64,000 bases of DNA from Corallococcus exiguus (GCF_051058965.1 NZ_CP183924.1); one strand, 5' to 3'. Numbered from the stretch's first letter, positions 11,982 to 50,604 are shown. Made by a program: numbers and translations. The notes: generated by a model not told the origin, from the letters alone.

Positions 11982-12022
11982 GGTGGCACCCGCCCGTCCG
12001 GAGCGTCCAATGCTGTTCTGGC

Positions 12023-12367
12023 ATGACGCGGCCTGGGTGCACGGCGCGCACGACTCGCGCTAACCTTCCGCGCGTGAGCATCACGCACCTCCAGTCCTTC
12101 GTCGCGGTGGCGGAAGAGGGCCATGTGGGCCGGGCCGCGCTCCGGCTGCACATCACCCAGCCGCCGCTCAGCCGTCACATCCTCGCCCTGGAGGATGAGC
12201 TGGGCACGCCCCTCTTCGAGCGCGTCCCCAAAGGCATGCGCCTGCTGCCCACCGGCGAGGCCCTGCTCCACCACGCGCGCCGCATCCTGGCGGAGGTGGA
12301 GGTCGCCACCCTCACCGTGCGCGAGGCGGCCGGAGGCTCTGGAGCCTCCAAGCCGCCCCACACCTGA
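12023..12367 (+). pseudogene. truncated LysR-family regulator (HTH domain only; effector-binding domain missing)
   Basis: ITHLQSFVAVAEEGHVGRAALRLHITQPPLSRHILALEDELGTPLFERVPKGMRLLPTGEAL is a complete LysR HTH. The reading frame ends after ~110 aa, 4 nt before the stop of the convergent helicase gene, so the co-inducer domain is missing. Confidence 0.5.
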
Positions 12368-26742: not shown

Positions 26743-27475
26743 GTTGCGCCTCCTGGGTGGGCTGGTGGCCCTGCTCTGTCTGTCGTGCGCTTCGGGTCCA
26801 AGGCAGTACGCGCAGACCACGGACTCCGCGACCAGTGCATGTCTGCGCAATCCCACCTGTTACACGCAGCCGGGGGATGAAGCGTTCCTGCCTTGGATGG
26901 ACAAGGCCGTGAGGGCAGCGGCCACTGCGGGAGCCACGATGAAGCTCCTGGAGGCTGCGGACGTGGCCCGCATCGAGCACCTGTTGGTGGAGTGCGCGAA
27001 GGAAGCGGACTTCATCGTCAACGAACGTGAGTACGGCCAGGGGAAATACCCGAACGACAAGGAGTGCTTGCGCGTGGTGGGCTACGACAAGAACGGCGTT
27101 CCCATCCGACGGCAGGCCGAGCTTGGGACGATGAAGCATGACGTCGCCTTCGCATGCGTTCAGCGAGAGGTCCGCCGACTCTTTCCCGACAATGTCTCAA
27201 TCGAGCCTCGCTACGGGACCTCCCCTACGTCAGGTGGCCCCACAATGACGAACATATGGAAGGGCTCGAAGAAGCCCGACATCGTCCTTCATGCCACTGG
27301 CCAGCCGCTCCAGATCCAATGCATTTTCGACCTCAAGTTCCCGTGCACGCTGAAAAGCAAGGGCGACCCCCTCTCCAACGACGGAACCCGTGAACAAATG
27401 TCCCGCTACGCGGAGTTGAGAGGAAAGTGCAAGCCCGCGATCATCACGCCCCAGTTTGGAGTCGTGCGTGAGTAA
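26735..27475 (+). CDS. Cys-rich lipoprotein with PD-(D/E)xK nuclease-like signature (candidate lipoprotein toxin)
   Basis: MIELRLLGGLVALLCLSCAS is a lipobox. The N-terminal region has five Cys. The C-terminal region has a helix Glu (VQREVRRLF), then PDIVLH, then 15 aa later IFDLK. This fits the E...PD...(D/E)xK restriction-endonuclease fold signature. Confidence 0.6.
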   Translation: MIELRLLGGLVALLCLSCASGPRQYAQTTDSATSACLRNPTCYTQPGDEAFLPWMDKAVRAAATAGATMKLLEAADVARIEHLLVECAKEADFIVNEREYGQGKYPNDKECLRVVGYDKNGVPIRRQAELGTMKHDVAFACVQREVRRLFPDNVSIEPRYGTSPTSGGPTMTNIWKGSKKPDIVLHATGQPLQIQCIFDLKFPCTLKSKGDPLSNDGTREQMSRYAELRGKCKPAIITPQFGVVRE

Positions 27476-28472
27476 GTATCCGTTCCTGCAACACTTCGCC
27501 CCGACGCTCCCCCGGGTCCAACTGGTCCTGCGCATCGTGTTCTACCTGCCCCATGACCACGGAGTGCTGGCCCCAGTCCTGCGACGGGTCCTCGACACCT
27601 ATCTCGGATTCATTGCTGCCGGTGGCGGAGCACTGACCTTCGGAGAGGATTCCGACGTCATTGAGGATGCCTTCCCGCTTGAGTCCGAGTTTTGGGAGGA
27701 AGCTCAACGCCACCTCACCAAGCCTCGATTCGAATACCTGGACGACATGGATCAAGACTCCTACTGGTTCCGAAGATTGACCAAGAGGGGTTTCGACACA
27801 TGGGTCATCCTCAAGGGAGGTCATTCGGAGCCAGATGGCTACGAATTCAGTTTCGAGTCTCGGCTCCCATGGAGAGAACCCACTTCCGAGCACAGCGTTC
27901 TGAGCGTGAAGCTCCCGATAAGCTTCCTGGAGACTCAGGGGCCCGAGAAGGCCTTTGCACTGGCACGGTCCCTGGCGGAGCTTCTTCCGTTCTCCACGGG
28001 CCATGCCGGGCTGTCGCTCTCATTCACGCGCGGGAGGTCGAAGCTCCTTCCCCTTCTCAAGGAGCAGCTGTCCAGGCATCCCGGCTGGCACGTTCCACCT
28101 CCGCTGACGTGGGGCTTGGGACCGTGGATCGACGACGTGCACTGGCTGAACTTCCTGGGCCCTCCCCTGCTCGAAACCGTTGGCGGTATCCAGGCACTTC
28201 GCTCGCACCTGAGCCATCCGGAGACCACCGTCCAGGAGCTCACCGGAGGCCGTGCCCTGATCAGCTTGGGCCCCGAGCCGCTCGCGGGGGACACGAAACT
28301 GGGTGAGACACTGCCGGCGTATCGCGAACTGGCCCGGTTCCTGGAGCCCTGGCTCCTGCCCTTCCCCCACGTCAACACCTGGGACGGCTACACCGACGAG
28401 GAGGCCCGTCTCTGGTGGCGCCGCTTCCTGGAGGCCCCTCCCAAGAAAATCTACGACCCACGCGGCGGATGA
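27468..28472 (+). CDS. hypothetical cytoplasmic protein (candidate immunity protein), start overlapping the upstream lipoprotein stop
   Basis: ORF 27456..28472. Probable GTG start at 27468 overlapping GTGAGTAA. ~335 aa with no signal peptide. Rich in Trp/Pro/Leu. No known domain. Confidence 0.55.
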   Translation: MSKYPFLQHFAPTLPRVQLVLRIVFYLPHDHGVLAPVLRRVLDTYLGFIAAGGGALTFGEDSDVIEDAFPLESEFWEEAQRHLTKPRFEYLDDMDQDSYWFRRLTKRGFDTWVILKGGHSEPDGYEFSFESRLPWREPTSEHSVLSVKLPISFLETQGPEKAFALARSLAELLPFSTGHAGLSLSFTRGRSKLLPLLKEQLSRHPGWHVPPPLTWGLGPWIDDVHWLNFLGPPLLETVGGIQALRSHLSHPETTVQELTGGRALISLGPEPLAGDTKLGETLPAYRELARFLEPWLLPFPHVNTWDGYTDEEARLWWRRFLEAPPKKIYDPRGG

Positions 28473-36830: not shown

Positions 36831-38015
36831 TCACCCCACCGGCTCGGAGGCGACGTCGGGCTCCGGTTCGTCCGGTCCCTCCACGGTGCGCTCCAGCGTG
36901 CGAGCGAGCGCGGCCCGGGCCTCCGCGGCCTCCTCGAAGGGCTCGTCGCTCCCGGCCCGCGCGGGGGCAGGCACCGTCGCATCCAGCTCCGCCGGGTGCA
37001 GGCGGAACCACTTCGCGACGAGCATCACCTCCTGGGCCTCCTGAGCGCGGAGGCCAATCGCCTCTGGCTCCGGCACGTCGAAGATGTCCCGCACGCGTGC
37101 GTCCAGCGCCGCCTGCTCCTCCGTCGTCCGGGGCGCGGGCACCTCCGCGCGGATCCGCCCCCGCCGAAGCACATACGTGCGGTCCTCACCGCCGTGCCCG
37201 CGCACCGTGTAGACCAGCGACAGTCGCCGCAGCGTGCGCCCCAGCTCGACGATCCACGCCTGCACGTTCTCCAGCCGCTCCGCGCGATCCCTCAGCTCCG
37301 CCGCGTATTCGAACTGGAGCCGCCGCGCCGCCATCGCCATGCGCTCGCGCAGGATGACCAGCGGCCGGTCCGACTCGCCGTTGAGGAACGCCCGAGCCAG
37401 CGCGACCTGCGCCAGGTACTCCGCCGTCGTGCACCCGCCCGCGCACGGCGACAGGCACCGCGCCGTCTGCCCGCGCATGCACCGCGGGTCGTCCTTCAGG
37501 GGGAAGAGCTGGATCTGATCCGCCAGCCGCATGGGCGTCTCGGACGGGCAGTCGCGCAGCTCCAGCAGGTCGTTCACCGCGCGCACCACGTCCGCCATGG
37601 TGTGCCGGCCGTGGAAGGGCCCGAAGTACTCCGCGCGCCCACCGCCACCGGGTTGGCCCACCACGCGCAGCCGGGGCACGGCCTCGCGAGTGAGCTGGAG
37701 GAAGCAGTGCGCGCGGTCGCGCTTGTGCTCCACGTTGTAGAGGGGCCGGTGGCTCTTGATCAGCCGGAACTCATGGAGCAGCGCCGCGAACTCGCTGGCC
37801 GTGTACTCCCACTCCACCTGGTGCGCCTGGGCGACGATCTCCCAGGCCTTCTCGCCCTCGTCCGCGCGGAAGTACGACAGGAGCCGCGTGCGCACCCGCA
37901 CGGACTTGCCCACGTAGAGCAGCTCCCCGGCGGGACCGAAGAACCGGTACACGCCGGGCCGGTTCTCCGCGCTCGAGCGGACGTGACTCAGGAGGGTGGC
38001 GACGCGCGGGTCCAT
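36831..38015 (-). CDS. GIY-YIG nuclease, UvrC-homologue (Cho-like) protein
   Basis: N-terminal GVYRFFGPAGELLYVGKSVRVRTRLLSYF is a GIY-YIG motif. A UvrC-like homology region follows. 394 aa; it lacks the UvrC C-terminal RNaseH/HhH domains. Confidence 0.7.
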   Translation of the reverse strand: MDPRVATLLSHVRSSAENRPGVYRFFGPAGELLYVGKSVRVRTRLLSYFRADEGEKAWEIVAQAHQVEWEYTASEFAALLHEFRLIKSHRPLYNVEHKRDRAHCFLQLTREAVPRLRVVGQPGGGGRAEYFGPFHGRHTMADVVRAVNDLLELRDCPSETPMRLADQIQLFPLKDDPRCMRGQTARCLSPCAGGCTTAEYLAQVALARAFLNGESDRPLVILRERMAMAARRLQFEYAAELRDRAERLENVQAWIVELGRTLRRLSLVYTVRGHGGEDRTYVLRRGRIRAEVPAPRTTEEQAALDARVRDIFDVPEPEAIGLRAQEAQEVMLVAKWFRLHPAELDATVPAPARAGSDEPFEEAAEARAALARTLERTVEGPDEPEPDVASEPVG

Positions 38016-38124
38016 GCGGCAGGTAGCACCGCAGGCTAACCCGCCACGTCCCGCCGCACCGCCGTTCGCGTGCGGCCCATCACAACCCGGCCGGAGGGCG
38101 GGCGGAGGGCCACCCGCCCGGACT

Positions 38125-39528
<1,404 letters not shown>

Positions 39529-39577
39529 TTACCGCGCGTCTTGGGTCGCCGCGCCATTTCCGTTACAAGCCGCCGCC

Positions 39578-41176
39578 ATGTTCAACGTCATCAACGTCTC
39601 CAAGGCCTATGGGCCCAAGAAGCTGTTCGAGGAGGTCAACGTCGCCTTCTCGCCGGGCCGCCGCTACGGCCTGACCGGTCCGAACGGGGCCGGCAAGTCC
39701 ACGTTCATGAAGATCCTCGCGGGAGACGAGGAGCAGGACATGGGCGACATCATCCGCCCGCGGAAGCTGGGCATCCTGCGCCAGGACCACTTCCGCTACG
39801 AGAGCGACCGCGTCATCGACGTGGTGCTGATGGGCAACCGCCACCTGTGGGCGGCGATGGACGAGAAGAACAAGCTGCTGGCCAAGTCCGACATCACCGA
39901 GGAGGACGGCAACCGGCTGGGTGAGCTGGAAGGCGTCATCGCGGAAGAGGACGGCTACTCGGCGGAGAGCGACGCGGCCACGCTGCTGGCCGGTCTGGGC
40001 ATCGAGGAGTCCTTCCACGAAGAGCCCATGCGCCAGCTGACGGGCGGCCTGAAGCTGCGCGTGTTGCTCGCGCAGGCGCTGTTCGGCAAGCCGGAAGGGC
40101 TGCTGCTCGACGAGCCCACGAACAACCTGGATATCGACTCCATCCGCTGGCTGGAGAACTTCCTGCATGTGTACGAGGGCGTGCTGATCACCATCAGCCA
40201 CGACCGGCACTTCCTGAACTCCATCTGCACGCACATCGCGGACATCGATTACGAGACCATCATCCAGTACACGGGTGGTTACGACGACATGGTCCGGCAG
40301 AAGTCGCAGCTGCGGACTCGGGTCGAGTCCGAGACGGAAGAGAAGAAGAAGAAGATCGCCCAGCTGCAGGACTTCGTGGCGCGCTTCCACGCCGGTACGC
40401 GAGCGTCGCAGGTGCAGAGCCGCATCAAGCAGATCGACAAGCTGAAGACGGAGGACCTGAAGCGCTCGAACATCGCGCGGCCGTTCATCCGGTTCGACCA
40501 GAAGGTGATCAGCGGTCGTCAGACGCTGATGTTCGAGGGCCTGAAGAAGTCCTTCGACGGGGTGCCGGTCATCAAGCCGTTCACGGGCCTGGTCTGCAAG
40601 GGCGAGCGCATCTGCGTGATTGGCCGCAACGCCGTGGGTAAGTCCACGCTGGTGAAGATGCTGGCCAACCAGCTGGAGCCGGACGCGGGGACCATCACCT
40701 GGGGCCACCAGGCGACGGTGGGCTACCTGCCGCAGGACCACCACGGCGTCATCCACAAGGGCACGACGTGCTTCGGCTACCTGCGGGAGATCAGCGAGAA
40801 GCTGACGAACGAGGAGATCTCGGGCGTGTTGGGCCGGATGCTCTTCTCGGGTGAGGAGCGGATGAAGGCGACGGACACGCTCTCCGGTGGTGAGACGGTG
40901 CGAGTGCTGTTGTCCAAGCTGATGATCACGCAGGACAACGTGCTGATCCTCGACGAGCCGACGAACCACCTGGACCTGGAGTCCATCGCGGCGCTGGCGG
41001 AAGGCTTGTCGAAGTTCGACGGCACGGTCATCTGCGTGACGCACGACCAGGAGCTCATCTCCGAGGTCGCGACCCGCATCTGGAGCCTGGAGGCGGGCAA
41101 GGAAGTGCTCGACTTCAACGGCCCGTATTCGGAGTTCAGGGAGAAGCACGCGGACGCGGCGCTCAAGCGCCGGTAG
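39578..41176 (+). CDS. ABC-F family ATPase (tandem ABC domains, no TM; YbiT/Uup/EttA-like)
   Basis: Start MFNVINVSKAYGPKKLF. Two Walker A sites (GPNGAGKST; GRNAVGKST), two LSGG signatures and an inter-domain linker. 532 aa. The listed ORF starts at 39113 in an overlapping frame. Confidence 0.85.
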   Translation: MFNVINVSKAYGPKKLFEEVNVAFSPGRRYGLTGPNGAGKSTFMKILAGDEEQDMGDIIRPRKLGILRQDHFRYESDRVIDVVLMGNRHLWAAMDEKNKLLAKSDITEEDGNRLGELEGVIAEEDGYSAESDAATLLAGLGIEESFHEEPMRQLTGGLKLRVLLAQALFGKPEGLLLDEPTNNLDIDSIRWLENFLHVYEGVLITISHDRHFLNSICTHIADIDYETIIQYTGGYDDMVRQKSQLRTRVESETEEKKKKIAQLQDFVARFHAGTRASQVQSRIKQIDKLKTEDLKRSNIARPFIRFDQKVISGRQTLMFEGLKKSFDGVPVIKPFTGLVCKGERICVIGRNAVGKSTLVKMLANQLEPDAGTITWGHQATVGYLPQDHHGVIHKGTTCFGYLREISEKLTNEEISGVLGRMLFSGEERMKATDTLSGGETVRVLLSKLMITQDNVLILDEPTNHLDLESIAALAEGLSKFDGTVICVTHDQELISEVATRIWSLEAGKEVLDFNGPYSEFREKHADAALKRR

Positions 41177-41198
41177 TTCTTCGCTCCTTCAGGCTGTG

Positions 41199-41247
41199 CC
41201 CAACGCCGCCCGTTTCCGGTTTTTCCGGAAGCGAGGCGGCGTTTTCG
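41199..41247 (+). terminator. Rho-independent terminator after ABC-F gene
   Basis: AACGCCGCC...(ccggtttttccgg inner hairpin)...GGCGGCGTT followed by TTTCG. Confidence 0.5.
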
Positions 41248-41436
41248 TGCCCGGATCATTGGTCCGACCTCAGAGGCCCGTAGCCATCCTGGGTCAATTC
41301 CACCCGCCCTCTCCAATACCCTTGAAGGTCATTGGCGACATGGCGCTCAAGACGAACTCGATTATCGTTACGCAATAGATCTCGGCGGCGCGAAGCTAAA
41401 GGACACAGCATCTAGAACAACAACGCGGCCTGGCTG

Positions 41437-43041
41437 ATGCTACCAAGCCACAAAACAGTTCCCCCATACACTCCCATGACCGCATCGCTACAACAGCTAG
41501 GCGAAACAGTAAAAGTCTACAGGCAAGCGCGCCGAATCACCCAAAGCCAACTCGCTGCACGAATATCACCTCGAACAAACCGCTCCGTAGTTGCTCATCT
41601 TGAGCAAGGCATACGCCTCCCTCCTCGATCAGCACTACGAAGTATTTGCCGATACCTAGAAATCCCAACAGAGCTTTGGCTACCTTTCGAGATCGAGGCC
41701 GTAAGACTTCGAACAGTACAAGAACTGAACGCAGGCTCCACGCCGCAGGGACTCCCGCACTTCATTTCCATATCAGGCCTACAGGCCAGCGGCAAAACAA
41801 CGCTAGCAAGAAAACTCGCATCACTACTTGGATATTCATACATAGGACAAAGCATAGCAGGGAAAGAATATCTCCCAGATCTCAAAAAAGACCCAACACG
41901 ATGGGCGTACGAAACACAAGTTGCATTTCTCTGCCACAAGGCCTTTGAAATATCAGAAACACTAGGCAAATCCCGCAGGACAATTATAGATCGATCCATA
42001 TATGAAGACGTAAACATATTCGCACAGAGCTTTTTCAACTCCGGCAACATGGACCACAGAGCATTTGAAACATACAAGGCTCTCGCCAACCACTTCATTG
42101 AAAACATCCCCCCACCCGAGCTTGTAATTTTCTGCGAAGTCGCACCCACCACATCGTTCGCAAGAATAAGAGAGCGCGCCCGCGAGGACGCAAACCTAAA
42201 CACACAGGAGCAAATCAACGCACTACATAACCTCTACACCCAATGGATCTCATCCCACAAGGACTCTTCCATCTGGGCAATAAACAGCGAGCAATTCGAC
42301 TGGCGCACCGATGACGTCGCCAAAGACATCTGCGCGGAATTATCAAGAACATGGAGCAAGCGAGCCACGCCGGAGTCCCAGCTCACGCTATTTGACATGA
42401 TTTTGTCTCCGGCAGACACTGAACCAGCCGAACCAACTCAACGATATTTCACTATCGTCCACGAAAAACCGCGAGCATCAGGCGAAGCACCAAGACTTTC
42501 AGTCGCCAGCGTAACACCGCTCTACCCTACCGCTTACATCGCGGCACCATTCACCAACAAAGCAAAGGCGGAACCAAAGAGAAAGAAAGACTTGGTTTCA
42601 GAAAAGGCCCCACATGGACTTATTGCTCCGGGCAGATACCGAAGCATGCTTCTAGGAATAGAAAAAACACTCAAGTCCATGGGGATCCACAGCTTCATAC
42701 CGCATCGCGACGTCAACAAGTGGGGACGACGAACCCTCACTCCCGATAAAGTTTTCCAAAACTGCTCCAACGCCGTCGAAGAATGCGATCTAATCATATC
42801 CATTCCAGGCCTTAGCCATGGGACCCACTACGAGCTTGGATTGGCAATCGGCCTCAAAAAACCAAGCATTATAATTCATTGCGACGAAATCAAAGAATCA
42901 TTCATAAGCACTGGCGCACAGTCCACCAGCGAACTTATTCTGCCGCTCTCATGCAAGAAAACGACTGAAATACCTCTCTTACTAGCTACGCCCGAAGCCA
43001 CTGCATTCCTCAAGAACTACTTCCCCATGAACACTAATTAA
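41437..43041 (+). CDS. tripartite fusion: XRE-type HTH + deoxynucleoside kinase (dNK/dCK-dGK family) + DNPH1/Rcl-like 2'-deoxynucleoside 5'-phosphate N-hydrolase (nucleoside 2-deoxyribosyltransferase fold)
   Basis: HTH at aa ~14-70 (LQQLGETVKVYRQARRITQSQLAARISPRTNRSVVAHLEQG). dNK at aa ~105-300: Walker A GLQASGKT, 'ERS' motif IDRSIYED, Arg-rich lid FARIRERARED. C-terminal aa ~365-490: YIAAPF...DLIISIPGLSHGTHYELGLAIGLKKPSIII, matching the DNPH1/NDT catalytic signature (S-x-G-x-x-YELG-x-A...KP-I). 534 aa; the alternative start M14 is at ~41476. Confidence 0.7.
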   Translation: MLPSHKTVPPYTPMTASLQQLGETVKVYRQARRITQSQLAARISPRTNRSVVAHLEQGIRLPPRSALRSICRYLEIPTELWLPFEIEAVRLRTVQELNAGSTPQGLPHFISISGLQASGKTTLARKLASLLGYSYIGQSIAGKEYLPDLKKDPTRWAYETQVAFLCHKAFEISETLGKSRRTIIDRSIYEDVNIFAQSFFNSGNMDHRAFETYKALANHFIENIPPPELVIFCEVAPTTSFARIRERAREDANLNTQEQINALHNLYTQWISSHKDSSIWAINSEQFDWRTDDVAKDICAELSRTWSKRATPESQLTLFDMILSPADTEPAEPTQRYFTIVHEKPRASGEAPRLSVASVTPLYPTAYIAAPFTNKAKAEPKRKKDLVSEKAPHGLIAPGRYRSMLLGIEKTLKSMGIHSFIPHRDVNKWGRRTLTPDKVFQNCSNAVEECDLIISIPGLSHGTHYELGLAIGLKKPSIIIHCDEIKESFISTGAQSTSELILPLSCKKTTEIPLLLATPEATAFLKNYFPMNTN

Positions 43042-43046
43042 ACACC

Positions 43047-43991
43047 ATGGACACAATCCTTCACTGGTACAAAGAGCTAAGCCCAACATTACGAAGCTTC
43101 CTTCGCGTATTTCTTTCGTTTTCGCTTTTCTACTGTGGCATCTTCGCCGAGCACTACGTCACAAAAGATATCGACACCCTAACCATGGGGCCGCTAGCTC
43201 TTCGCGCGATATCAATGGGACTTGCCGGGCTTATCCTCTTCGGCATCTCGGCGACTTTCTCGTCAAGACTTGACAGTCTTTTTGATCGGGATCGGCGACA
43301 ACAAGAACACTTGGCATACGCCTCCAGTCTTATCTCGCAGTACATAGCAAGCCAAACCAAGACCGTCGCCGCAGCAAATGAGACTCCAACGCCCTCAAAA
43401 GACAGCCTCCTGCATTTGCTCGTGACCTCCAAGCCAAGAATCCAGGAAATAACAGACAAAGTATATCAATTTTTCGAATCAAAATACGGACAATCATCCA
43501 AGATCGAAGAAAAGATCGATTTTGAAGTCACATTCATGAGCAAATCATACATCGACCAGGGGATAACGATCCCCGCCTACGCAAATCGCATGGGACGGGC
43601 CCCAAAGAGCATGATTGATCGACAAGGCCATCCGGAACGATACAACCAAAGCGTCACCGCAGAAGTCTATCGAGACGGACGCCCTGAGATGCGCCTCATA
43701 TCAGACACTAGCGATCCCAAGGCAGGGTATGTCGCGCTCTACTCAGGCCAAACAGAGAGAATCAAATCGACAATAATCCAGCCAGTGCTATCTTTTGACA
43801 ATAGGATCCTTGGCACGCTGGTTGTCCACTGCGACCAAAAGGGATTCTTCAAGAATGATGATGGCAAATTCTGGCGAGAAATCTTCGAAGGGTTTGCGCG
43901 CAATTTGGCGCTCGAAAAAACGCGACTTGATGCATTGATGTCCACTTCTGTCGCGACCACACTTGGATTCTCGCCCGCTCCGCCATTTTAG
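43047..43991 (+). CDS. membrane protein with two N-terminal TM helices and a C-terminal cytoplasmic GAF-like/unknown domain (island partner gene)
   Basis: TM1 ~aa 17-37 (FLRVFLSFSLFYCGIFAEHY). TM2 ~aa 48-70 (PLALRAISMGLAGLILFGISATF). ~240-aa soluble domain with no recognisable catalytic motif. Same low GC and A3 codon bias as the upstream gene. 5-nt intergenic gap. Confidence 0.6.
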   Translation: MDTILHWYKELSPTLRSFLRVFLSFSLFYCGIFAEHYVTKDIDTLTMGPLALRAISMGLAGLILFGISATFSSRLDSLFDRDRRQQEHLAYASSLISQYIASQTKTVAAANETPTPSKDSLLHLLVTSKPRIQEITDKVYQFFESKYGQSSKIEEKIDFEVTFMSKSYIDQGITIPAYANRMGRAPKSMIDRQGHPERYNQSVTAEVYRDGRPEMRLISDTSDPKAGYVALYSGQTERIKSTIIQPVLSFDNRILGTLVVHCDQKGFFKNDDGKFWREIFEGFARNLALEKTRLDALMSTSVATTLGFSPAPPF

Positions 43992-44377
43992 GCTGGGCAC
44001 CAGAATCCCATTTTGGCTCCAGACCTGCGAGTGCGGCAGCGGCGAATGTCATCATAATCACACAACTTCATCAGCAATAACGGCGCAACCTGCCCGCGTC
44101 TCGCGAATAACGATAATTCTAAATTCACTCTCGACCGCGCCGTTCGCCGGTTCACTTTATACATACCAGGCGTTTCTCAGCCTAGCAGCACTGTTCTCTA
44201 GTGGTGTGTATACAGTCCCAGTGACTTATCCCTGCAACGCAATTGGTCGGTGAACAACTGCTGAATCAAGATCAGCCGTTTTCGCTGCCAGTCAAGCCGA
44301 TTCAGGCTCATGTTGCCTTATCCAGAGAATCGTTCTTGATGCCGGGGGGACGGCGTCAGTAGGTATGATGCAAGGCC

Positions 44378-45832
44378 ATGTACCCGACACGCCGTCTTCT
44401 GGCCCGTGGACAGTGGTTGTTCGATCTCAGACCGCATCGGCTCATCGTCTTCCACGGGCATGGAGGCGTGCGCCAAGAGGTCAGTGGAAACGTGCCGGAT
44501 ACTCCGTCCGCGCCCGTGGTGCTCGCCGCGCTGGATGAGGCAGAGGACGTCTGGGTGGGTAGCGGGGATCGGCGTGTCTTCTCCGTGGGGACCGGCGCGA
44601 GCGCTCCTGTCCAAGCCTTTCCGAGGGAGTGCTTCGATCTCACCACAGATGGAGACCGGCTCATTGGAACGGTGGTGGACGGCTCCCTCAAACTGGCCAC
44701 CCTCTTCACAACCGATGGATCCGGACAACGATGGGAGCCCATGACCCTGCCCAAGCCCGTGAGCGCCAGTCACGGGTACGGCTATAGCGAGGGGCGTCCT
44801 CACCGTCAGTCCCCCGATGGGGCGTTCCTCGACACGGGCCCTTTCGGCATCACCGTCGTGGAGAAGGGCCGGGGCCGCGTCTACGTGCTCCGCCCGGGGG
44901 CGGCGCAGCCAGAGGGCGCTCTCCAGGTGGAGCCGGGCCATGAGCAGGACATCTGGCGGGCCCAGGCCACACCCCACGGCGTGCTCCTCCTGCTCGTCAT
45001 CAACTACCGGCAGACGGCGCTCCTCCACTTCGCGCTCGACGGCACCCTGCTCGGCTCCATCCCGGAGCAGGATGATGAGGATGATGAGGCTGCGGATGAC
45101 CTGACCTGGGGTGGTGCCGGGATGTGCGTCCTCGACGCAGACCGGGCGCTCCTCTTCGTGCAGGACAAGACCCTCCTGGTGTCCCTGCCTGGGCTCCAGG
45201 TGATCGAGACGCTCGTGGGGGAGTGGCCCCACTTCGTGTCCGTGGCCCCTGCGGGGCCTTACCGGTGGTGGGTGGGCCCCGAGGACAGTGACGCGCTCTT
45301 CCTGCTCACCGCCGAGCCCGGACAGCCCTTGCGCCTCGACGCCTCGAACCGTCCGGTGAGCCCGGGCGCGCCGCTCATGCACGTGGGCTACAAGACGCCC
45401 GCGATCCACTGGACCGAACACACCTCGGCGCCGCTGACCGTGTCCTCCCCCGTGGCAGAGACGTGGCGGGCGGTGTTGCGCAACGACGGTACCGCTTGTG
45501 AGGCGGTGCGGATCCGCGTGTCAGGGGTGCTCATCGGCGCTCGCGTGGTGGACGTGAGCGTGCGGTATCGCGGCCAGCCGCTCCCGATGGTGGAGGAGCA
45601 GCGCGTGAACGTCGTGGGGGTTACCGCCGGACTGGAGGGAGGGGCCACCGCGGAGCTGGAAGTGACCTTCAAGCCCCGGAGCGAGGGCTCGGGACCGCTG
45701 ACCATCACCGTCGAGCCATGCTCCTGGCAGTCGAAGGGCAAAGAGTGGCAGTGGCAGACCCAAGAGGAGTCTCGCGCCCTCGCGGCGACGGGCCATCCGG
45801 CATCCGCCCAGTTCCTGCTCACGGTGGAGTAG
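44378..45832 (+). CDS. hypothetical protein (high-GC, host-like composition)
   Basis: 484-aa ORF with GC3 bias. No recognisable motif. True start uncertain. Confidence 0.5.
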   Translation: MYPTRRLLARGQWLFDLRPHRLIVFHGHGGVRQEVSGNVPDTPSAPVVLAALDEAEDVWVGSGDRRVFSVGTGASAPVQAFPRECFDLTTDGDRLIGTVVDGSLKLATLFTTDGSGQRWEPMTLPKPVSASHGYGYSEGRPHRQSPDGAFLDTGPFGITVVEKGRGRVYVLRPGAAQPEGALQVEPGHEQDIWRAQATPHGVLLLLVINYRQTALLHFALDGTLLGSIPEQDDEDDEAADDLTWGGAGMCVLDADRALLFVQDKTLLVSLPGLQVIETLVGEWPHFVSVAPAGPYRWWVGPEDSDALFLLTAEPGQPLRLDASNRPVSPGAPLMHVGYKTPAIHWTEHTSAPLTVSSPVAETWRAVLRNDGTACEAVRIRVSGVLIGARVVDVSVRYRGQPLPMVEEQRVNVVGVTAGLEGGATAELEVTFKPRSEGSGPLTITVEPCSWQSKGKEWQWQTQEESRALAATGHPASAQFLLTVE

Positions 45833-46988
45833 CGCGAACCTTCTCGGGCTCGGGCACGGCGCTCATCTTCCAGATCAGAGCGCCCCCTCCAATGAGGAAC
45901 CCCAGTCCCACTGCCGCCGCAAGGATCCAGCCTCGTCTCACGCGAGACCGTGCCTGGCTCTCCGGGCCTTCCGGAGCCGGGGCCGTGACGGTCGGGCCGT
46001 CGCTCGGAGAGACCTGCTGGACGAGTTGTGCCACCTGTCGTGGGGTCACCGGCTCACCCGACGAGCGGATGAACTCCTCTAGATCCGCCTGGAACGCGCG
46101 GCAGTCCGGGTAGCGCTGCTCGCGATCCTTGGCGAGCGCCCGGGCGATGGTGGCTCGCAGCGCGCCGTGCAGGTCCGGCCGGTGCTGCTCCACGGGCACC
46201 ATGGGCGCGGATAAGACAGCCGCCATCACGGCCCAGTCGGACTTGGCCTCAAATGGCTTGCGCGTGGTGAGCAGTTCGTAGAGCACCACACCGAGCGAAT
46301 AGACATCCGCCCGCCGGTCCACCGGAAAGCCCCGGATCTGCTCGGGCGCCATGTACACGTGCTGGCTCAGATGGGGGATATGGTGTTGGGGGGTCCATCG
46401 GGAGCGGAAGTCCTCGATGCCAAAGTCCACCACCTTCGCCGTCCCCTGGCGCGACAAGAGGATGTTGTATGGCCGGATGCAGCGATGGGTGAGCTCCAGC
46501 GGCTGCTTCGTCTTGGGATCGGTGAGGTCGTGGGCATGGGCGAGCCCCGCGCAGGCTTGCGAGATGATGCGCGCGCACAGGGTCGCCGACAGGGTCATCC
46601 GCTGGGCCGCCAGGTGATTGATCAACTGGCGCAGGCTGGGCCCATCGACGTGCTCCCTGGCGAGGAAGTACGTGCCGTCCGCCTCACCGAAGTCGACGAC
46701 CTTCACGAGGTTCGGGTGCTTGAGCGGCGCGACACTCTTCGCCGTGTCGAGGAACATCTCCGGGAAATCCACCTGCTCGGCCATGTCCGACCGGAGGCAC
46801 TGGAGCACCAGCGTCTTCTCGACGCCCCGCGGGCCAGCAGTCTTGGCCAGATGGTCCTCGATGATACCGCCGGAGAGCAGGCGGATGCGCTGGTATTTGC
46901 CAACTTGGGATGTCACGAGACGTATGAATAGCAGACCATGATCCGGTATCGCTTCCTTGGGCTTCTTCTGGCGCTGCTTCCGCTCCAT
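45819..46988 (-). CDS. membrane-anchored Ser/Thr pseudokinase (degenerate catalytic motifs)
   Basis: Kinase fold is recognisable (VDFGIED DFG-like motif, YMAPEQ). G-loop degenerate (LSGGIIEDHLA). VAIK Lys replaced (TLVLQCL). HRD-motif Asp replaced (HRCIRPYNILL). C-terminal Pro-rich region and TM helix (WILAAAVGLGFLIGGGALIW). Start taken at MERKQRQ. Confidence 0.65.
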   Translation of the reverse strand: MERKQRQKKPKEAIPDHGLLFIRLVTSQVGKYQRIRLLSGGIIEDHLAKTAGPRGVEKTLVLQCLRSDMAEQVDFPEMFLDTAKSVAPLKHPNLVKVVDFGEADGTYFLAREHVDGPSLRQLINHLAAQRMTLSATLCARIISQACAGLAHAHDLTDPKTKQPLELTHRCIRPYNILLSRQGTAKVVDFGIEDFRSRWTPQHHIPHLSQHVYMAPEQIRGFPVDRRADVYSLGVVLYELLTTRKPFEAKSDWAVMAAVLSAPMVPVEQHRPDLHGALRATIARALAKDREQRYPDCRAFQADLEEFIRSSGEPVTPRQVAQLVQQVSPSDGPTVTAPAPEGPESQARSRVRRGWILAAAVGLGFLIGGGALIWKMSAVPEPEKVRATPP

Positions 46989-48689
46989 GTCGGCGCTGTC
47001 CCCATTCCCGCGGAGCAGTTGGTGGGCATCTGGGGCGGTGAGCGCGTCCTCGGGCCTCAGGTTCGCGGAGAGCTGACACTGGTGCGGGCTGGGAACTCCT
47101 GGCACGCGCGCATCGCAGGCTTCGACGTCCCGGCTCGGGTCGAGGGTCGGAAGGTGTCCGTCATCTTCCCAGGAGGCGAACTCCGAGCGACGTTGGCGGA
47201 GAACGGGCAGAGCATCACGGGCCACTGGATCCAGCCGCGTGTGCTCATGAGCGGCATGAAGTTCGCCACTCCCGTGGAACTGCGCGCGCTTCAGCCGGGT
47301 GTCTGGCGCGGCAACGTGGCGCCGCTGGAGGACCGGTTCTCGCTGTATCTCGTCGTCCAGAAGCAGCCTGACGGCTCCGTGAAGGCGTTCATCCGCAACC
47401 CGGAGCGGAACTTCGGCAACCGGATGCTCTTCCGTGTCGACCTCCAGGGCCGCACGGTCCGGCTCACGTCCACCAAGGACAACACCCAGATCGAAGGCAC
47501 GTTCGACGCGCAGTCCGGACGGCTGTCGCTCCCCTACCCTCCCTTCGACACGACGTTCGACTTCACCCGCCGGGACCGGTCGCAGGCCGTGGGGCTCTAC
47601 TCCCGCACGCCCGCCCCAGGCCCCTACGCCTACCAGAAGCCCATCGCGGAGGACGACGGCTGGACCACGGCCTCCCCCGCCGACGTCGGCATGGACGTCC
47701 AGCCGCTCCAGCAGCTCGTGCAGCGCATCCTCGACCAGGAACCCAGCCCGGAATCAGTGCCCGCCATCCAAGGGCTGCTCATCGCGCGCCACGGAAAGCT
47801 CATCGTCGAAGAGTACTTCCAGGGCTTCGACAAGGAGCGTCCCCACGACCTGCGCTCCTCCTCCAAGTCCTACGCATCCCTGCTGATTGGCATTGCCCTG
47901 GACCAGGGTGCGGCCTTCTCCGTGGACACGCCCGTCGCGTCCCTCTTCCCCGAGTACAAAGGCAAGCTCTCCAACCTGGACGCGCGCAAGCGCAAGCTCA
48001 CCGTCGCGCACTTGATGACCATGGCGACGGGCCTGGCCTGTGACGACGACAATCCGGACTCACCCGGTAACGAGGACCGGCTCGAGGACTCCGTGCCGGA
48101 TTGGTACAAGTACACGCTGGACCTCCCCATGGTCCGTGCTCCCGGCGGCGGGAAGGCCGTGTACTGCTCCGCGAACATCAACCTGCTGGGCGGCGTCCTC
48201 CGCAACACCACCCGCACCTGGATCCCCGAGTTCTTCACGAAGAACGTCGCCACGCCCCTCCAGATGCGCGGCTACCATCTGGACCTGATGCCCGATGGCG
48301 AGCAGTACCTCGGAGGCGGCATCTACATGCGCCCTCGCGATGCCCTGAAGCTCGGGCAGCTCTACCTCTCCGGTGGCACGTGGAACGGAAAGCGCGTGGT
48401 CAGCCAGCGCTGGGTGGAACGCTCCGTCGCGAACCAGGCGACGATGCCGGACGGACGAACCTATGGCTACACGTGGTGGCGCCATGAGCTTCGCGTCGGT
48501 GACCGCGTGTATTCACAGTACGAAGCCAGCGGTAACGGCGGCCAGCTGGTGATGGTCGTTCCGGAGCTGGACCTCGTCGTGCTGTTCACCGCGGGCAACT
48601 ACAACCACGTCGCCATCTGGCGGAAGTTCCGTGAGGAACTCCTGCCCCGATACATCATGGCCGCGGTCTCCACGCCCCCGCGGCCTTGA
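46938..48689 (+). CDS. secreted beta-lactamase-family serine hydrolase (class C/PBP4*-like)
   Basis: Signal peptide MIRYRFLGLLLALLPLHVGA. S-x-x-K motif (SSSKSY) and YxN-like region present. 583 aa with extra N-terminal domain. Confidence 0.75.
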   Translation: MIRYRFLGLLLALLPLHVGAVPIPAEQLVGIWGGERVLGPQVRGELTLVRAGNSWHARIAGFDVPARVEGRKVSVIFPGGELRATLAENGQSITGHWIQPRVLMSGMKFATPVELRALQPGVWRGNVAPLEDRFSLYLVVQKQPDGSVKAFIRNPERNFGNRMLFRVDLQGRTVRLTSTKDNTQIEGTFDAQSGRLSLPYPPFDTTFDFTRRDRSQAVGLYSRTPAPGPYAYQKPIAEDDGWTTASPADVGMDVQPLQQLVQRILDQEPSPESVPAIQGLLIARHGKLIVEEYFQGFDKERPHDLRSSSKSYASLLIGIALDQGAAFSVDTPVASLFPEYKGKLSNLDARKRKLTVAHLMTMATGLACDDDNPDSPGNEDRLEDSVPDWYKYTLDLPMVRAPGGGKAVYCSANINLLGGVLRNTTRTWIPEFFTKNVATPLQMRGYHLDLMPDGEQYLGGGIYMRPRDALKLGQLYLSGGTWNGKRVVSQRWVERSVANQATMPDGRTYGYTWWRHELRVGDRVYSQYEASGNGGQLVMVVPELDLVVLFTAGNYNHVAIWRKFREELLPRYIMAAVSTPPRP

Positions 48690-48696
48690 CCCACTC

Positions 48697-49356
48697 TCAA
48701 TCCCGGTCCGGCGCTCCCAGCGGGAAGAGCGGCCGGTACGGGCGCCCTCCATCCACAGCCCGGGCGACCGACGGACGCGCGAGCAACCTCGCGCGATAGG
48801 CGCGCAGCTGGGGACACGACTCCGGAATCCGGTGCGTCCAATCCGCGTAGAACAGCGACGGCGCGGCCGCACAGTCCGCCAGCGTGAAGTCGTTGCCCGC
48901 GGCCCAGGTCCGGCCACCCAGCTGGCCTTCGATCCACGCGTAGGACCGCTCCAGCTTCTCCACCGCCAGCTTCATCCCGTCCTGGCGCTTCACCGGGTCC
49001 CCCGTCAGCGCTCCGTTCACGGCGTGCTGGGCCGCGTCCATGACGTGCAGGTCGAAGAAGCGGTCGAGGAACCGCACGTCCAGCGCGACCATCGGGTCCT
49101 CGGGCAGCAGGCGCACCGACCCGGGATGCTTCAGCTGGAGATACTCGATGATGATGCTCGTCTCGACGACCTGACGGTCACCGTCCACCAGCAGCGGGAA
49201 CTTGCGCAGCGGCCAGCGGCGCAGCCATTCGGCTGAATGCTCCGGCGTCTCCGGGCTGATGCTTCGAAACTCGAAGGGCGTGCCGTTCTCATACAGCGCG
49301 ATGAGCACCTTCTGCGTGTACGAAGAGAAATAGTGACCGTAGACCGCGAGCGACAT
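48697..49356 (-). CDS. glutathione S-transferase
   Basis: Start MSLAVYGHYFSSYTQKVLIALYENGTPFEF is a thioredoxin-like GST N-domain. The C-terminal helical domain follows. 219 aa. Confidence 0.8.
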   Translation of the reverse strand: MSLAVYGHYFSSYTQKVLIALYENGTPFEFRSISPETPEHSAEWLRRWPLRKFPLLVDGDRQVVETSIIIEYLQLKHPGSVRLLPEDPMVALDVRFLDRFFDLHVMDAAQHAVNGALTGDPVKRQDGMKLAVEKLERSYAWIEGQLGGRTWAAGNDFTLADCAAAPSLFYADWTHRIPESCPQLRAYRARLLARPSVARAVDGGRPYRPLFPLGAPDRD

Positions 49357-49453
49357 CGTCGGACCTCTCCTTTCGACCACTTGCGTTTCACAACGGGTTG
49401 AACCGTATTTGCACCACTTGCATACTGCAAGCAGGAACCCCAGGAGCACGGCC

Positions 49454-49960
49454 ATGCCGCAGACAGGGCGCTCCGGCTGCCCCATCAACCTGACGCTCGA
49501 ACAGCTTGGCGACCGTTGGAGCCTGATCGTCATCCGCGACGTCATGTTCGGGAACCGGCGCAGCTACGGCGACCTGCTCTCGCAGAGCGAAGAAGGCATC
49601 GCCTCCAACATCCTCGCGGACCGGCTGAAGCGCCTGACCGCGTCCGGCCTGCTATCGCGACGCCCGGATCCGAACCACCAGCAGAAAGGCATCTACAGCC
49701 TCACGGAGGCGTCCATCCAACTGGTGCCCCTGCTCGCGCACATGGGTGCCTGGGGCCGCCGGCACACGCAGGTGAGCGAGGAGCTGTCGGTGCGCGCGGA
49801 GCTGTTGGAGAAGGGCGGCCCGCCCCTCTGGAACGCGTTCATGGAGGAGCTGCGCCACCTGCACCTGGACGCGCCGCGCCCTTCCCGCTCGGTGTTCCGC
49901 GAGCTTCAGGCCGCCTACGAGAAGGCCGTCGCTCGCAACGCTCGGGACGGACGGACCTGA
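49454..49960 (+). CDS. HxlR-family (MarR-like winged-helix) transcriptional regulator, divergent from GST
   Basis: CPINLTLEQLGDRWSLIVIRDVMFGNRRSYGDLLSQSEEGIASNILADRLKRL is the HxlR signature. 168 aa. Confidence 0.75.
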   Translation: MPQTGRSGCPINLTLEQLGDRWSLIVIRDVMFGNRRSYGDLLSQSEEGIASNILADRLKRLTASGLLSRRPDPNHQQKGIYSLTEASIQLVPLLAHMGAWGRRHTQVSEELSVRAELLEKGGPPLWNAFMEELRHLHLDAPRPSRSVFRELQAAYEKAVARNARDGRT

Positions 49961-49983
49961 AGCGGGTAGCGTTCACCGCGCTC

Positions 49984-50604
49984 ATGAAAGCCATCGGCTG
50001 GTGGATGTTCGTCCTGCTGTGCGCGCTGTGGCTCCCCGCCTGCGGTCCCTACGACTGCACCCCGGAGAACTGCGCGGACGGCTGCTGCTCCTCGTTCAAT
50101 GAGTGCATCTCGTTCCGGAGCGACTCGGAATGCGGCCCCAATGGCAGCGCCTGTGAACCCTGCGCGGAGGGCAGCGTCTGCCGGCTCGACCAGCACACCT
50201 GCTACGTGGGCGTGATGCGCACCTATATCCAGCCTCGGTACGCCACCATCGCGGACGTCGACCCGGATACGGGCGAGGACTGGGACTCCGACGGCTCTCC
50301 TCCGGACGTCGTCGTGGAGATGAAGTGTCCCGGCGCTCCCGAGCGCTCCCGCACCGAGGAGGACGAGAGCTGGGACCCCGAATGGCGCTCCGGCGGCTGC
50401 CAGGTCATCACGTCCAACCTGCTGCGCTACCCGCTCGAAATCTCCATCTTCGACAACGACGACTTCACCTTCGATGACGAGTTCGGCGGCCTCTCCTACC
50501 AGGTCACCCGCGCGGACCTGAACCTGGGCCGCATCGAGATCTCCATCACGCCCATCGTGAAGACGCTCGTCTTCGACCTGAGCCACAACTACGCGCCGCA
50601 ATGA
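49984..50604 (+). CDS. Cys-rich hypothetical lipoprotein
   Basis: MKAIGWWMFVLLCALWLPACG is a lipobox. ~12 Cys in the first 70 mature residues. Asp/Glu-rich C-terminal half. Confidence 0.55.
   Translation: MKAIGWWMFVLLCALWLPACGPYDCTPENCADGCCSSFNECISFRSDSECGPNGSACEPCAEGSVCRLDQHTCYVGVMRTYIQPRYATIADVDPDTGEDWDSDGSPPDVVVEMKCPGAPERSRTEEDESWDPEWRSGGCQVITSNLLRYPLEISIFDNDDFTFDDEFGGLSYQVTRADLNLGRIEISITPIVKTLVFDLSHNYAPQ

Follow-up and report, generated by a model that had tools for sequence, protein, structure and literature searches.

A low-GC two-gene cassette in a Corallococcus exiguus hotspot, a candidate anti-phage system directed at deoxynucleotide precursors

The 64,000-nucleotide stretch of the Corallococcus exiguus chromosome considered here (GCF_051058965.1, NZ_CP183924.1; the whole stretch is called the window) contains, just downstream of a gene for an ABC-F protein, an island whose G+C content (GC) is far lower than that of the surrounding DNA; this raises the question of what the island encodes, how it came to occupy its position and what its genes may do. 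The island, which is almost certainly real, strain-specific foreign DNA in a hotspot, is filled by two closely spaced open reading frames (ORF) on the + strand, located at 41437/41476-43041 (ORF1) and 43047-43991 (ORF2). ORF1 appears to be a fusion of a helix-turn-helix (HTH) domain, a deoxynucleoside kinase and a nucleotide N-glycosidase, and ORF2 is predicted to be a membrane-anchored GAF protein. The cassette is probably an anti-phage defence system, a role considered likely because of its genomic association, namely the slot in which it lies and the defence genes that neighbour its relatives. The fuller proposal, that of a horizontally acquired two-gene cassette in a hotspot downstream of the ABC-F gene and of an undescribed anti-phage system working on deoxynucleotide precursors, is one on which our confidence is evenly divided.

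ORF1 is 100% identical to WP_434300302.1, annotated as ‘deoxynucleoside kinase [Corallococcus exiguus]’; residue numbers are given here for the 534-amino-acid frame, in which the start chosen by NCBI is M14, and the homologues align from about this residue. The exact ORF1 and ORF2 proteins each form a single-member cluster, found in one C. exiguus chromosome (10.49 Mb), and the nearest relatives of the cassette proteins are 43-63% identical. The kinase domain is recognised by Pfam dNK (PF01712) with 110.4 bits against a cut-off of 27 (E 1.3e-31), and its top PDB profile match is the deoxynucleoside kinase 8puu (E 2.9e-38). The P-loop GxxGxGK[ST], the E/D-R-S motif and the arginine-rich lid are all present; indeed, across 33 family sequences G114, G117, G119, K120, T121 and T122, D185-R186-S187, E190 and D191, and R243 and R247 are invariant or nearly so, and judging from these residues the domain looks active. 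The HTH is present in roughly a third of the ORF1 homologues listed and missing from about two thirds of them.

The C-terminal domain of ORF1 is related to MilB and DNPH1. The family profile matches, among PDB entries, MilB (4jem, E 1.1e-13), BcmB (5e-11) and BlsM (1.4e-10), and the AlphaFold2 (AF2) model of the domain (pLDDT 87) finds MilB as its best Foldseek match (E 8e-9, TMt 0.79-0.82), with further matches to nucleoside 2′-deoxyribosyltransferases (NDT), human DNPH1, BcmB and BlsM; the modelled flavodoxin-like fold is superposable on MilB, NDT and DNPH1. The catalytic Glu103 of MilB corresponds to E466 of ORF1, and Ser97 and Gly99, which contact the 5′-phosphate, to S460 and G462; all three ORF1 residues are invariant and align with the segment PGV..SPGTHVEIG of MilB. 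Asp78, a sugar/base contact, is matched by D451, and the base-stacking Phe22 by F372. Three positions are occupied by other residues: Phe17 is replaced by Y367 (invariant), Arg23, which reads the 5-hydroxymethyl group, by T373 (invariant), and Glu62, which reads the cytosine amino group, by N427. MilB has the motif F-L-(G/A)-(G/A)-P-F-(R/K), in which the Arg/Lys reads the 5-hydroxymethyl group and Phe17 gives ribo specificity, the F17Y change switching the enzyme from cytidine monophosphate (CMP) to its 2′-deoxy form, dCMP (PMC4081090). Since the motif of ORF1 is Y-I-A-A-P-F-T, the domain is like MilB in fold and chemistry without being a MilB specific for hydroxymethyl-CMP, and specificity for 2′-deoxy substrates is predicted because a Tyr stands at the Phe17 position; the residues and the model together suggest that the domain is very probably an active N-glycosidase for 5′-phosphorylated 2′-deoxy substrates. 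A MilB-style attack on phage hydroxymethyl-pyrimidines was also considered and was rejected, the Arg/Lys sensor position being an invariant Thr.

The ORF1 glycosidase thus shares with MilB, BlsM, BcmB and DNPH1 (Rcl) the fold (Foldseek TM about 0.8 to MilB), the catalytic Glu, the phosphate-binding Ser/Gly, the ribose-contacting Asp and the stacking Phe. Unlike these enzymes, it has Tyr for Phe17, Thr for Arg23 and Asn for Glu62, it is fused to a kinase and an HTH, it carries an insert of about 30 residues past strand 1, and its context is that of defence islands, not of antibiotic gene clusters.

ORF2 is 100% identical to WP_434300303.1, ‘GAF domain-containing protein’. Its AF2 model (pLDDT 87, pTM 0.82) consists of helices 13-42 and 47-111, the second of which runs on as a stalk, followed by an alpha/beta domain with a GAF fold; in the family, hydropathy has a peak at about residues 50-70 in 20 of 21 members, and a weaker first peak in most. 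The pocket-like signature of the GAF domain is invariant, and the binding of a small molecule is predicted from it and from the model. Comparison of ORF2 with PDB sequences returned only spurious matches to transmembrane (TM) helices, and the identification needed a fold search; some homologues carry precomputed PF01590 matches. A HMMER profile search of 1.84 billion representatives gave 225 ORF2-family clusters, 146 of them at E <= 1e-30 and almost all of 300-320 amino acids: the family is small and uniform. In one relative, P0182 (locus L064, 1901-3097), a TIR_2 domain (31.9 bits, above cut-off) stands in place of the hairpin, fused to an ORF2-type GAF domain; this TIR shares 35% identity (E 5e-10) with a free-standing TIR whose gene lies in one string with the pair at loci L053/L054.

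The two genes belong together. All long contigs retrieved through homologues of either protein have an ORF1-like gene next to an ORF2-like one, and a metagenome scan with the ORF2 profile, which gave 80 loci in 61 de-duplicated groups, allowed the pairing to be counted in the 27 groups with both flanks readable. The pair is adjacent in 25 of these, the ORF1-like gene being directly upstream in 21, convergent in three and downstream in one; the two groups lacking an ORF1-like gene comprise one intact copy and one 101-amino-acid remnant. Co-translation is not required for the partnership, since a sub-branch has the kinase-glycosidase and TM-GAF genes in convergent, tail-to-tail arrangement (L091, L094, L095, L098, L112 and L126).

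A three-gene form also exists: in at least 13 independent loci (e.g. L069, L081, L085 and L088) a gene for a PP-loop ATPase-like protein abuts a kinase-glycosidase gene without the HTH; its product scores 26 bits with ATP_bind_3, just under the cut-off, and retains SGGKDS in 11 of 11 sequences. At L053/L054 (6268-10261) a ThsB/SpbK-like TIR gene lies ahead of the PP-loop, kinase-glycosidase and partner genes, forming a tight four-gene string. At locus L065 the ORF1 homologue (P0215) is split between kinase and glycosidase by about 200 nucleotides (1102-1311) with perfect 17-nucleotide inverted repeats, CTTGACATTGTTAGATT / AATCTAACAATGTCAAG, and this insert looks like a miniature transposable element; ORF2 is absent there, the next gene encoding a SIR2_2-NA-iREase1-WD40 protein of 1229 amino acids, and P0215 was treated as a degenerate or variant copy with a stand-alone glycosidase.

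Around the cassettes of other hosts defence genes are frequent; the neighbours include Wadjet JetABCD with DUF4238, TIR together with OLD-TOPRIM/UvrD (Gabija-like) and AbiC, an Eco57I restriction-modification system, HEPN/MNT with AAA_21, PDC-M30A with a ThsA-type SIR2-WD40 protein, DUF3800, and integrase, relaxase and insertion sequence (IS) elements. The cassette forms a local GC trough in every host examined, 15-30 points below its surroundings, e.g. 30% in a host of 60% and 52% in one of 70%, and hosts of 48-60% GC carry a cassette of about 30%. A tblastn search with ORF2 found no match in 72,556 plasmids or 50,697 phages, and no relative was present in IMG/VR; in PHROGs, ORF1 had only generic kinase, HTH and NDT matches and ORF2 had none.

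The island had been described, in a sequence-only reading of the window, as a segment of low GC and alien codon usage, and both features are confirmed; what the two ORFs encode had gone unrecognised there. The GC of 41250-44324 is 0.499, against a mean of 0.697 (sd 0.019, minimum 0.660) for the remaining segments of 3075 nucleotides in the 64-kb stretch, which places the island about 10 standard deviations (sd) under that mean; in sliding segments of 300 nucleotides GC passes from 0.64-0.75 to 0.45-0.55 from about 41250 to 44350, and nowhere else in the 64 kb is comparable. A occupies the third codon position in 37% of ORF1 and 28% of ORF2 codons, against 2-8% in six flanking genes, and the codons CTA, ATA, AGA, CGA, AAA and ACA make up 128/848 island codons (15.1%) and 33/2518 flank codons (1.3%), an enrichment of about 12-fold. 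Homology with all Corallococcus relatives breaks at 41249/41250, directly past the ABC-F terminator and exactly at the left edge proposed in that reading; the right edge, which it had placed at 44370, is instead at 44324/44325, with the homology of the relatives picking up again at 44325-44353.

The same reading had recognised no integrase, transposase, tRNA or direct repeats, in agreement with the scans that followed. ARAGORN found no tRNA or tmRNA across the 64-kb window, Rfam at gathering threshold found no family in it, and there is no integrase or transposase among the island ORFs; the flanks are free of convincing repeats, whether direct or inverted: at the right junction a repeat score of 19 lies within the shuffle range (17.3±2.2), and an 18-nucleotide repeat at 41110/41265 is not significant (10% of shuffles reach such a repeat; p about 0.1). 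An integrase-mediated genomic island is therefore rejected, because there is no integrase or recombinase, no tRNA or gene-end target and no significant flanking direct repeat. The non-coding 3′ tail of the island has no homology to the relatives, no Rfam match and no local inverted repeats, and contains a single weak terminator-like hairpin at 44260-44276; a search for operators upstream of ORF1 and in the tail found no short inverted repeats, and sigma-70 and terminator scans gave scores at shuffle level.

That the island could be an assembly artefact, with foreign reads joined into the chromosome in a chimeric contig, has a negligible probability: the composition shift is abrupt and mobility genes are absent, as in such a join, but both junctions fall where other cargo is joined in related species, the NCBI-annotated source record is of chromosome size (10.49 Mb), and homologous cassettes occupy similar GC dips in many independent assemblies. 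Horizontal acquisition, on the other hand, is well supported, ORF1 and ORF2 being missing from all 22 orthologous ABC-F loci and their nearest relatives being so distant. A donor of much lower GC, as had been proposed, does not follow from the composition: the cassette family is itself poor in GC, like defence islands at large, and the GC of the donor is not inferable because the cassette is below host GC in every host examined.

The 22 orthologous loci, from Corallococcus, Myxococcus and Pyxidicoccus, were gathered via the flanking ABC-F protein, and the sequence beyond the terminator ...GGCGGCGTTTTCGTG differs in them from species to species. In C. llansteffanensis (L005) an empty site is preserved, in which the terminator is followed by about 58 bp and then by the equivalent of window position 50008 onward, the conserved spacer beginning near 49962; therefore the entire region 41250-49961 is variable, and it constitutes a slot of 8.7 kb between the ABC-F gene and a lipoprotein gene, with the island at its left end. 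Thus, of the two flanks suggested for the island by the sequence-only reading, the ABC-F gene holds as the left one, whereas the hypothetical gene on the right lies within the variable slot and is not a stable flank; indeed, the two genes are adjacent in no relative, and the true empty site joins the ABC-F terminator to about 49962-50008.

The rest of the slot, of native GC, is shared with four other Corallococcus species (L003, L008, L011 and L012) and is missing from the L005 empty site; in the same four species other low-GC cargo always lies between the ABC-F gene and this module. The slot of C. exercitus AB043A contains Shedu SduA (PADLOC E 1.6e-132), that of C. exercitus SDU142 contains PD-Lambda-1 (PADLOC E 1.6e-153) and PDC-M04A/DUF3800 (1.5e-36), that of C. 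carmarthensis an AAA_21 ATPase-methyltransferase with AriA/PtuA-type matches, and that of C. aberystwythensis low-GC ORFs with weak BrxC/D and methyl-directed restriction endonuclease matches. Different known defence systems, an empty site and a common breakpoint after the terminator are thus found together, as in a defence hotspot flanked by core genes. In C. terminator (L007, 12854-15184) the slot is occupied by a low-GC (0.52) gene for a 776-amino-acid GGDEF protein (E 2.7e-28) with no PADLOC match, which may be another uncharacterised defence candidate.

No integrase was found in any of the slot loci. A second copy of the ABC-F 3′ end is present inside the slot in L011 (537 nucleotides at 95%; 1257-1789 / 6894-7430) and in L003 (96 nucleotides at 88.5%; 12015-12107 / 14692-14785), where the duplicated ends separate two cargo modules; these look like scars of recombination via the conserved flank. 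Because of them, exchange by flanking homology is preferred to an integrase, and the sequences suggest that the cargo of the slot is replaced when its conserved flanks recombine, at times leaving a duplicated flank. The mechanism of insertion, called unclear in the sequence-only reading, is in this respect partly accounted for, such exchange fitting a recombination and defence hotspot whose left breakpoint is common to many species. In C. sicarius (L001, 12077-15872) an insertion of 3.8 kb separates the ABC-F terminator from the ancestral spacer motif GTGTCCATACCCCTCCCGGGGGATGC, at exactly the breakpoint seen in the window. The motif GTGTCCATACCCCTCACGGGGGATGC, seen past the terminator in six relatives, was considered as a recombination site and rejected: each of these loci has a single copy, the window has none, and the motif is simply ancestral spacer.

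The slot resembles the core defence hotspots (cDHS) of P. aeruginosa and the E. coli hotspots (PMC10250203, PMC10121019) in being a fixed position between conserved genes that holds differing defence systems of low GC and no integrase; unlike those, it is a new one of Corallococcus, bounded by the ABC-F terminator and the lipoprotein gene, and occasionally it has a duplicated ABC-F 3′ end. As cargo of low GC in a defence hotspot between core genes, the island itself is ordinary, in contrast to what it encodes. Features are collected in Table 1.

Table 1. Position of the island, its genes and domains, and the adjoining parts of the slot (window coordinates)
Feature	Coordinates	Strand	Basis and remarks
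Conserved ABC-F 3′ untranslated region (UTR) and terminator, shared left breakpoint	41177..41249	+	all Corallococcus loci align through ...GGCGGCGTTTTCGTG, then diverge
Low-GC island, foreign cassette including its own 5′/3′ non-coding ends	41250..44324	+	3075 bp; GC and homology breaks
ORF1, fusion of HTH, deoxynucleoside kinase and nucleotide N-glycosidase	41476..43041	+	521 aa (NCBI start); upstream in-frame ATG at 41437 gives 534 aa
XRE-type HTH, ORF1 residues 20-80	41494..41676	+	Pfam HTH_31 E 6e-10, HTH_3 E 2e-6, above cut-off
Deoxynucleoside kinase domain, ORF1 residues 110-297; P-loop K120 at 41794-41796	41764..42327	+	Pfam dNK (PF01712)
MilB/DNPH1-like nucleotide N-glycosidase domain (predicted), ORF1 residues 364-525; catalytic E466 at 42832-42834	42526..43011	+	profile, fold, residues
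ORF2, membrane-anchored GAF protein (predicted), 314 aa	43047..43991	+	starts 5 nt past ORF1 stop
Helical hairpin, ORF2 residues 13-72; second helix strongly hydrophobic, stalk to about 111	43083..43262	+	AF2, hydropathy
GAF-fold domain, predicted to bind a small molecule, ORF2 residues 128-297	43428..43937	+	invariant pocket signature ITIP..AN, GTLVVHC, FF..W
Non-coding 3′ tail of island	43992..44324	.	GC about 0.52; no feature detected
Native-GC rest of slot: hypothetical 484-aa gene, Ser/Thr kinase (-), beta-lactamase-family gene, glutathione S-transferase (GST) (-), HxlR regulator	44325..49961	.	Pfam, PADLOC

How the two proteins might defend the cell can be outlined from their domains. 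ORF1 fuses a deoxynucleoside kinase to a MilB/DNPH1-type N-glycosidase, both with conserved catalytic motifs, and the two may act in series, converting deoxynucleoside and ATP into deoxynucleoside monophosphate (dNMP) and the latter into free base and deoxyribose-5-phosphate, or following a base-exchange variant; the dNMP made by the kinase is exactly the type of substrate predicted for the fused glycosidase. Breakdown of host DNA by a phage, or a phage-driven flood of (modified) deoxynucleosides and dNMPs, would raise the flux through ORF1, and DNA precursors would be destroyed; in T5 infection, Dmp turns host dNMPs into deoxynucleosides (PMC10511110). ORF2 consists of a membrane hairpin and a GAF fold with an invariant pocket, and has no other output domain. 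The pocket might read a small molecule of the pathway, either product or substrate of ORF1, upon which the hairpin would oligomerise and damage the membrane, leading to abortive infection, a logic shared with the TM effectors of Pycsar, CBASS and Thoeris II. The N-terminal HTH may autoregulate the operon, and in the three-gene form it is the PP-loop ATPase gene that stands where the fused HTH sits here. This relay, from ORF1 flux to ORF2 as a ligand-gated membrane effector, is favoured because TM helices and a ligand-binding fold are all that ORF2 has, because a TIR can replace the hairpin and because the partner is kept in almost every locus; as a specific mechanism it is put forward tentatively, with our confidence somewhat short of even.

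N-terminal TM helices joined to a C-terminal small-molecule-binding domain, with no other output, are the layout of effectors in Pycsar (PycTM/PycTIR), CBASS (2TM, Cap15), Thoeris II (TM-Macro) and CRISPR (Cam1). ORF2 resembles these, and the occurrence of the same GAF sensor fused alternatively to TIR, in P0182, parallels PycTM versus PycTIR; unlike in those systems, the sensor is a GAF domain, there is no cyclase, CD-NTase or TIR generator, and the chemistry of the kinase-glycosidase partner is degradative. Indeed, no TIR was found in ORF1, ORF2 or the island, a TIR gene being part of the operon only at L053/L054, and neither a pyrimidine cyclase nor a CD-NTase is present among the two ORFs of the island; the cassette is therefore set apart from Thoeris, Pycsar and CBASS.

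On the side of ORF1, the closest parallel in layout, with AvcD named beside it, is the defensive dCTP deaminase of Tal et al., a nucleotide-depletion system in which an essential N-terminal kinase domain is fused to a nucleotide-modifying domain (bioRxiv 10.1101/2021.04.26.441389). Both are single polypeptides with an N-terminal P-loop kinase-type domain and a C-terminal domain that destroys deoxynucleotides, and both target the pool of DNA precursors; in ORF1, however, the destructive domain would be an N-glycosidase of NDT/MilB fold in place of a zinc deaminase, the kinase belongs to the dNK family proper, the predicted substrates are deoxynucleosides and dNMPs and not dCTP, and there is an obligatory membrane GAF partner. 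The defensive action of Cap17 and Detocs DtcC is to cleave (d)ATP at its N-glycosidic bond, which deprives the phage of it (10.1101/2023.01.24.525353); they share with ORF1 the bond attacked, but have the unrelated PNP_UDP_1 fold, use triphosphates, (d)ATP, as substrates and depend for their activation on a cyclic oligonucleotide or a phosphorelay. In type VIII Thoeris the effector ThsI combines a CMP-hydrolase domain with TPR and has been proposed to manipulate the nucleotide pool (bioRxiv 10.64898/2025.12.03.692087). What it has in common with ORF1 is a MilB-type ‘CMP hydrolase’ domain, there part of an anti-phage system, and a ThsB-like TIR gene is found at the relative locus L053/L054; the cassette of the window, unlike ThsI, has no TIR gene and no TPR, gives no indication of control by cyclic ADP-ribose, and has the fused kinase and the TM-GAF partner instead. 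In PADLOC-DB v2.0.0 no modelled system had all its components matched and ORF2 had no match, NCBIfam contained nothing specific for the cassette proteins, and the full-text literature had no description of a kinase-glycosidase/TM-GAF pair; this comparison did not extend to the newest DefenseFinder models, and the pair may already be catalogued under another name. Altogether, the cassette is probably a nucleotide-centred defence system in a defence island, sharing working principles with several known systems.

Several points weigh against this picture. Searched as single sequences, the glycosidase domain is below the Pfam threshold for Nuc_deoxyrib_tr (PF05014; 25.5 vs 28.8), and so is ORF2 for GAF_2 (20.8 vs 28.6) and GAF (15.9 vs 22.4). 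T373 in place of the hydroxymethyl-sensing Arg23 and N427 in place of the cytosine-reading Glu62 leave the substrate base unset. PADLOC has no model for ORF2, and its matches to ORF1 are at the level of kinase and HTH (VakA 3e-9, PDC-M51B 6.5e-5, HTH_VI). The TIR-GAF protein P0182 adjoins a DUF4231 gene, with no ORF1-like gene on its 3.8-kb contig; for this reason it shows reuse of the module and not membership of the same system, and it was not used as evidence of the latter. Free base and deoxyribose-5-phosphate are, moreover, ordinary metabolites, and a killing effector that responds to them would carry a danger of autoimmunity, above all where the host is a predator and digests the DNA of its prey. 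Finally, the argument for a defence role is one of genomic association and of the logic of the domains, and from sequence the parts of sensor and executor are not assignable to ORF1 and ORF2.

Other divisions of labour between the two proteins can be envisaged. ORF1 might be the sole effector, draining deoxynucleosides and dNMPs and thereby starving phage DNA synthesis, with ORF2 as a non-killing membrane sensor or regulator that holds ORF1 inactive until infection is perceived by the GAF domain or by the membrane. Such pure nucleotide depletion would suit the combination of kinase and nucleotide-degrading domain, which mirrors the validated dCTP deaminase defence protein where both domains are essential, the MilB-like CMP-hydrolase domain as predicted effector of type VIII Thoeris, N-glycosidic cleavage of nucleotides as a proven effector chemistry, and the invariance of the catalytic residues in both ORF1 domains. 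It is nonetheless judged rather unlikely: ORF1 lacks a recognisable regulatory ligand-binding domain, a TM hairpin with a GAF domain and nothing else corresponds to a layout that recurs among membrane effectors gated by a ligand, the exchange of TM for TIR ahead of the same GAF module suggests an output role for the N-terminal part, and it would have to be explained why a soluble enzyme has a membrane partner in 25 of 27 loci. A new form of signalling immunity, which we consider unlikely, would have the TIR-related enzyme of NDT/MilB fold make or unmask a second messenger derived from deoxyribose or a nucleobase; the fused kinase (and in the three-gene form the PP-loop base-modifying enzyme) would feed this enzyme, which would act on dNMP by hydrolysis or base exchange under phage flooding, and the GAF receptor would respond with membrane disruption or, in the TIR-GAF variant, with depletion of NAD+.

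The order of the genes recalls instead a toxin-antitoxin (TA) pair, with an HTH protein first and a putative toxin second at a spacing of 5 nucleotides: ORF2 would be a membrane toxin with an abundant nucleotide-type ligand, and ORF1 an enzymatic antitoxin that removes the ligand and represses the operon through its HTH. The XRE-HTH resembles type II antitoxins, ORF1 has a weak NCBIfam match to a HipB-type antitoxin, and TA genes neighbour the cassette in L050 (HI1420) and L063 (HEPN/MNT); yet most of the listed ORF1 homologues have no HTH, convergent arrangements exist that are unusual for co-translated TA pairs, and none of the relatives is found on plasmids or phages, where addiction modules are common. 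This makes an addiction module quite improbable, and it is no less improbable that the module stabilises the island, phage defence being secondary through decay of ORF1 after host shut-off. There is only a slim chance that the cassette has no part in defence and is a small module for nucleoside salvage or for biosynthesis of a modified nucleobase, with a membrane GAF sensor, riding in variable regions. The nearest characterised enzymes, MilB, BlsM and BcmB, are indeed biosynthetic, and the three-gene form adds a PP-loop ATPase (SGGKDS 11/11) of a class that modifies nucleobases; however, no MilA/ThyA-like hydroxymethylase or other biosynthetic gene lies alongside, T373 does not have the Arg/Lys character that marks MilA-linked homologues, the cassette moves as a unit of two or three genes into the defence islands of very different hosts, and in Corallococcus it is allelic with Shedu and PD-Lambda-1.

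The remaining genes of the slot and of the window provide further observations. The 484-amino-acid hypothetical gene (44378-45832, +) has no Pfam, PADLOC or PHROGs match, and travels with the kinase in four other Corallococcus only, always directly after the variable low-GC cargo. The Ser/Thr kinase (45819-47225, -) is recognised by many of the PADLOC models for PD-T4-6 (best E 1.4e-55) and also by mad6 and MkoA, and could be another defence gene; kinases of this sort are, however, very numerous in myxobacterial genomes, so that the match by itself is weak evidence. Another patch of low GC, smaller than the island, is present at 27000-28000 (GC 0.59) and carries a type VI secretion system immunity gene as identified by Pfam, the ORF 27456-28472 (+) matching TsiV ‘Type VI immunity for VRR-NUC’ (E 1.3e-39); the ORFs 26528-27475 and 27444-28004 (-) beside it have no family match. 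Regarding the ABC-F gene, its longest ORF (39113-41176, with GTG at 39113, 687 amino acids) overlaps the upstream ORF 37996-39924 by about 800 nucleotides; the first ABC_tran domain begins only from residue 173, and the best-conserved alignments to several relatives start at about 120-150, some from residue 1. The true start is probably near 39500-39600.

If confirmed, the relay would represent a new immune strategy, in which deoxynucleosides and dNMPs are phosphorylated and, in tandem, destroyed (or converted) at the N-glycosidic bond, at the level where many phages recycle host DNA, in contrast to the dNTP level of the dCTP deaminase and dGTPase systems; GAF, a classic small-molecule sensor, would also join the receptor and effector modules of immunity. 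The signalling variant, if true, would mean a new class of messenger, made by a fold new among such generators, and would introduce GAF as a receptor domain of immunity. The glycosidase has a human relative, DNPH1, which is a drug target, and a natural version coupled to a kinase and of defined specificity could interest enzymologists. Finally, phage defence in myxobacteria is little studied, and the Corallococcus hotspot between the ABC-F terminator and the lipoprotein gene may be mined for further systems.

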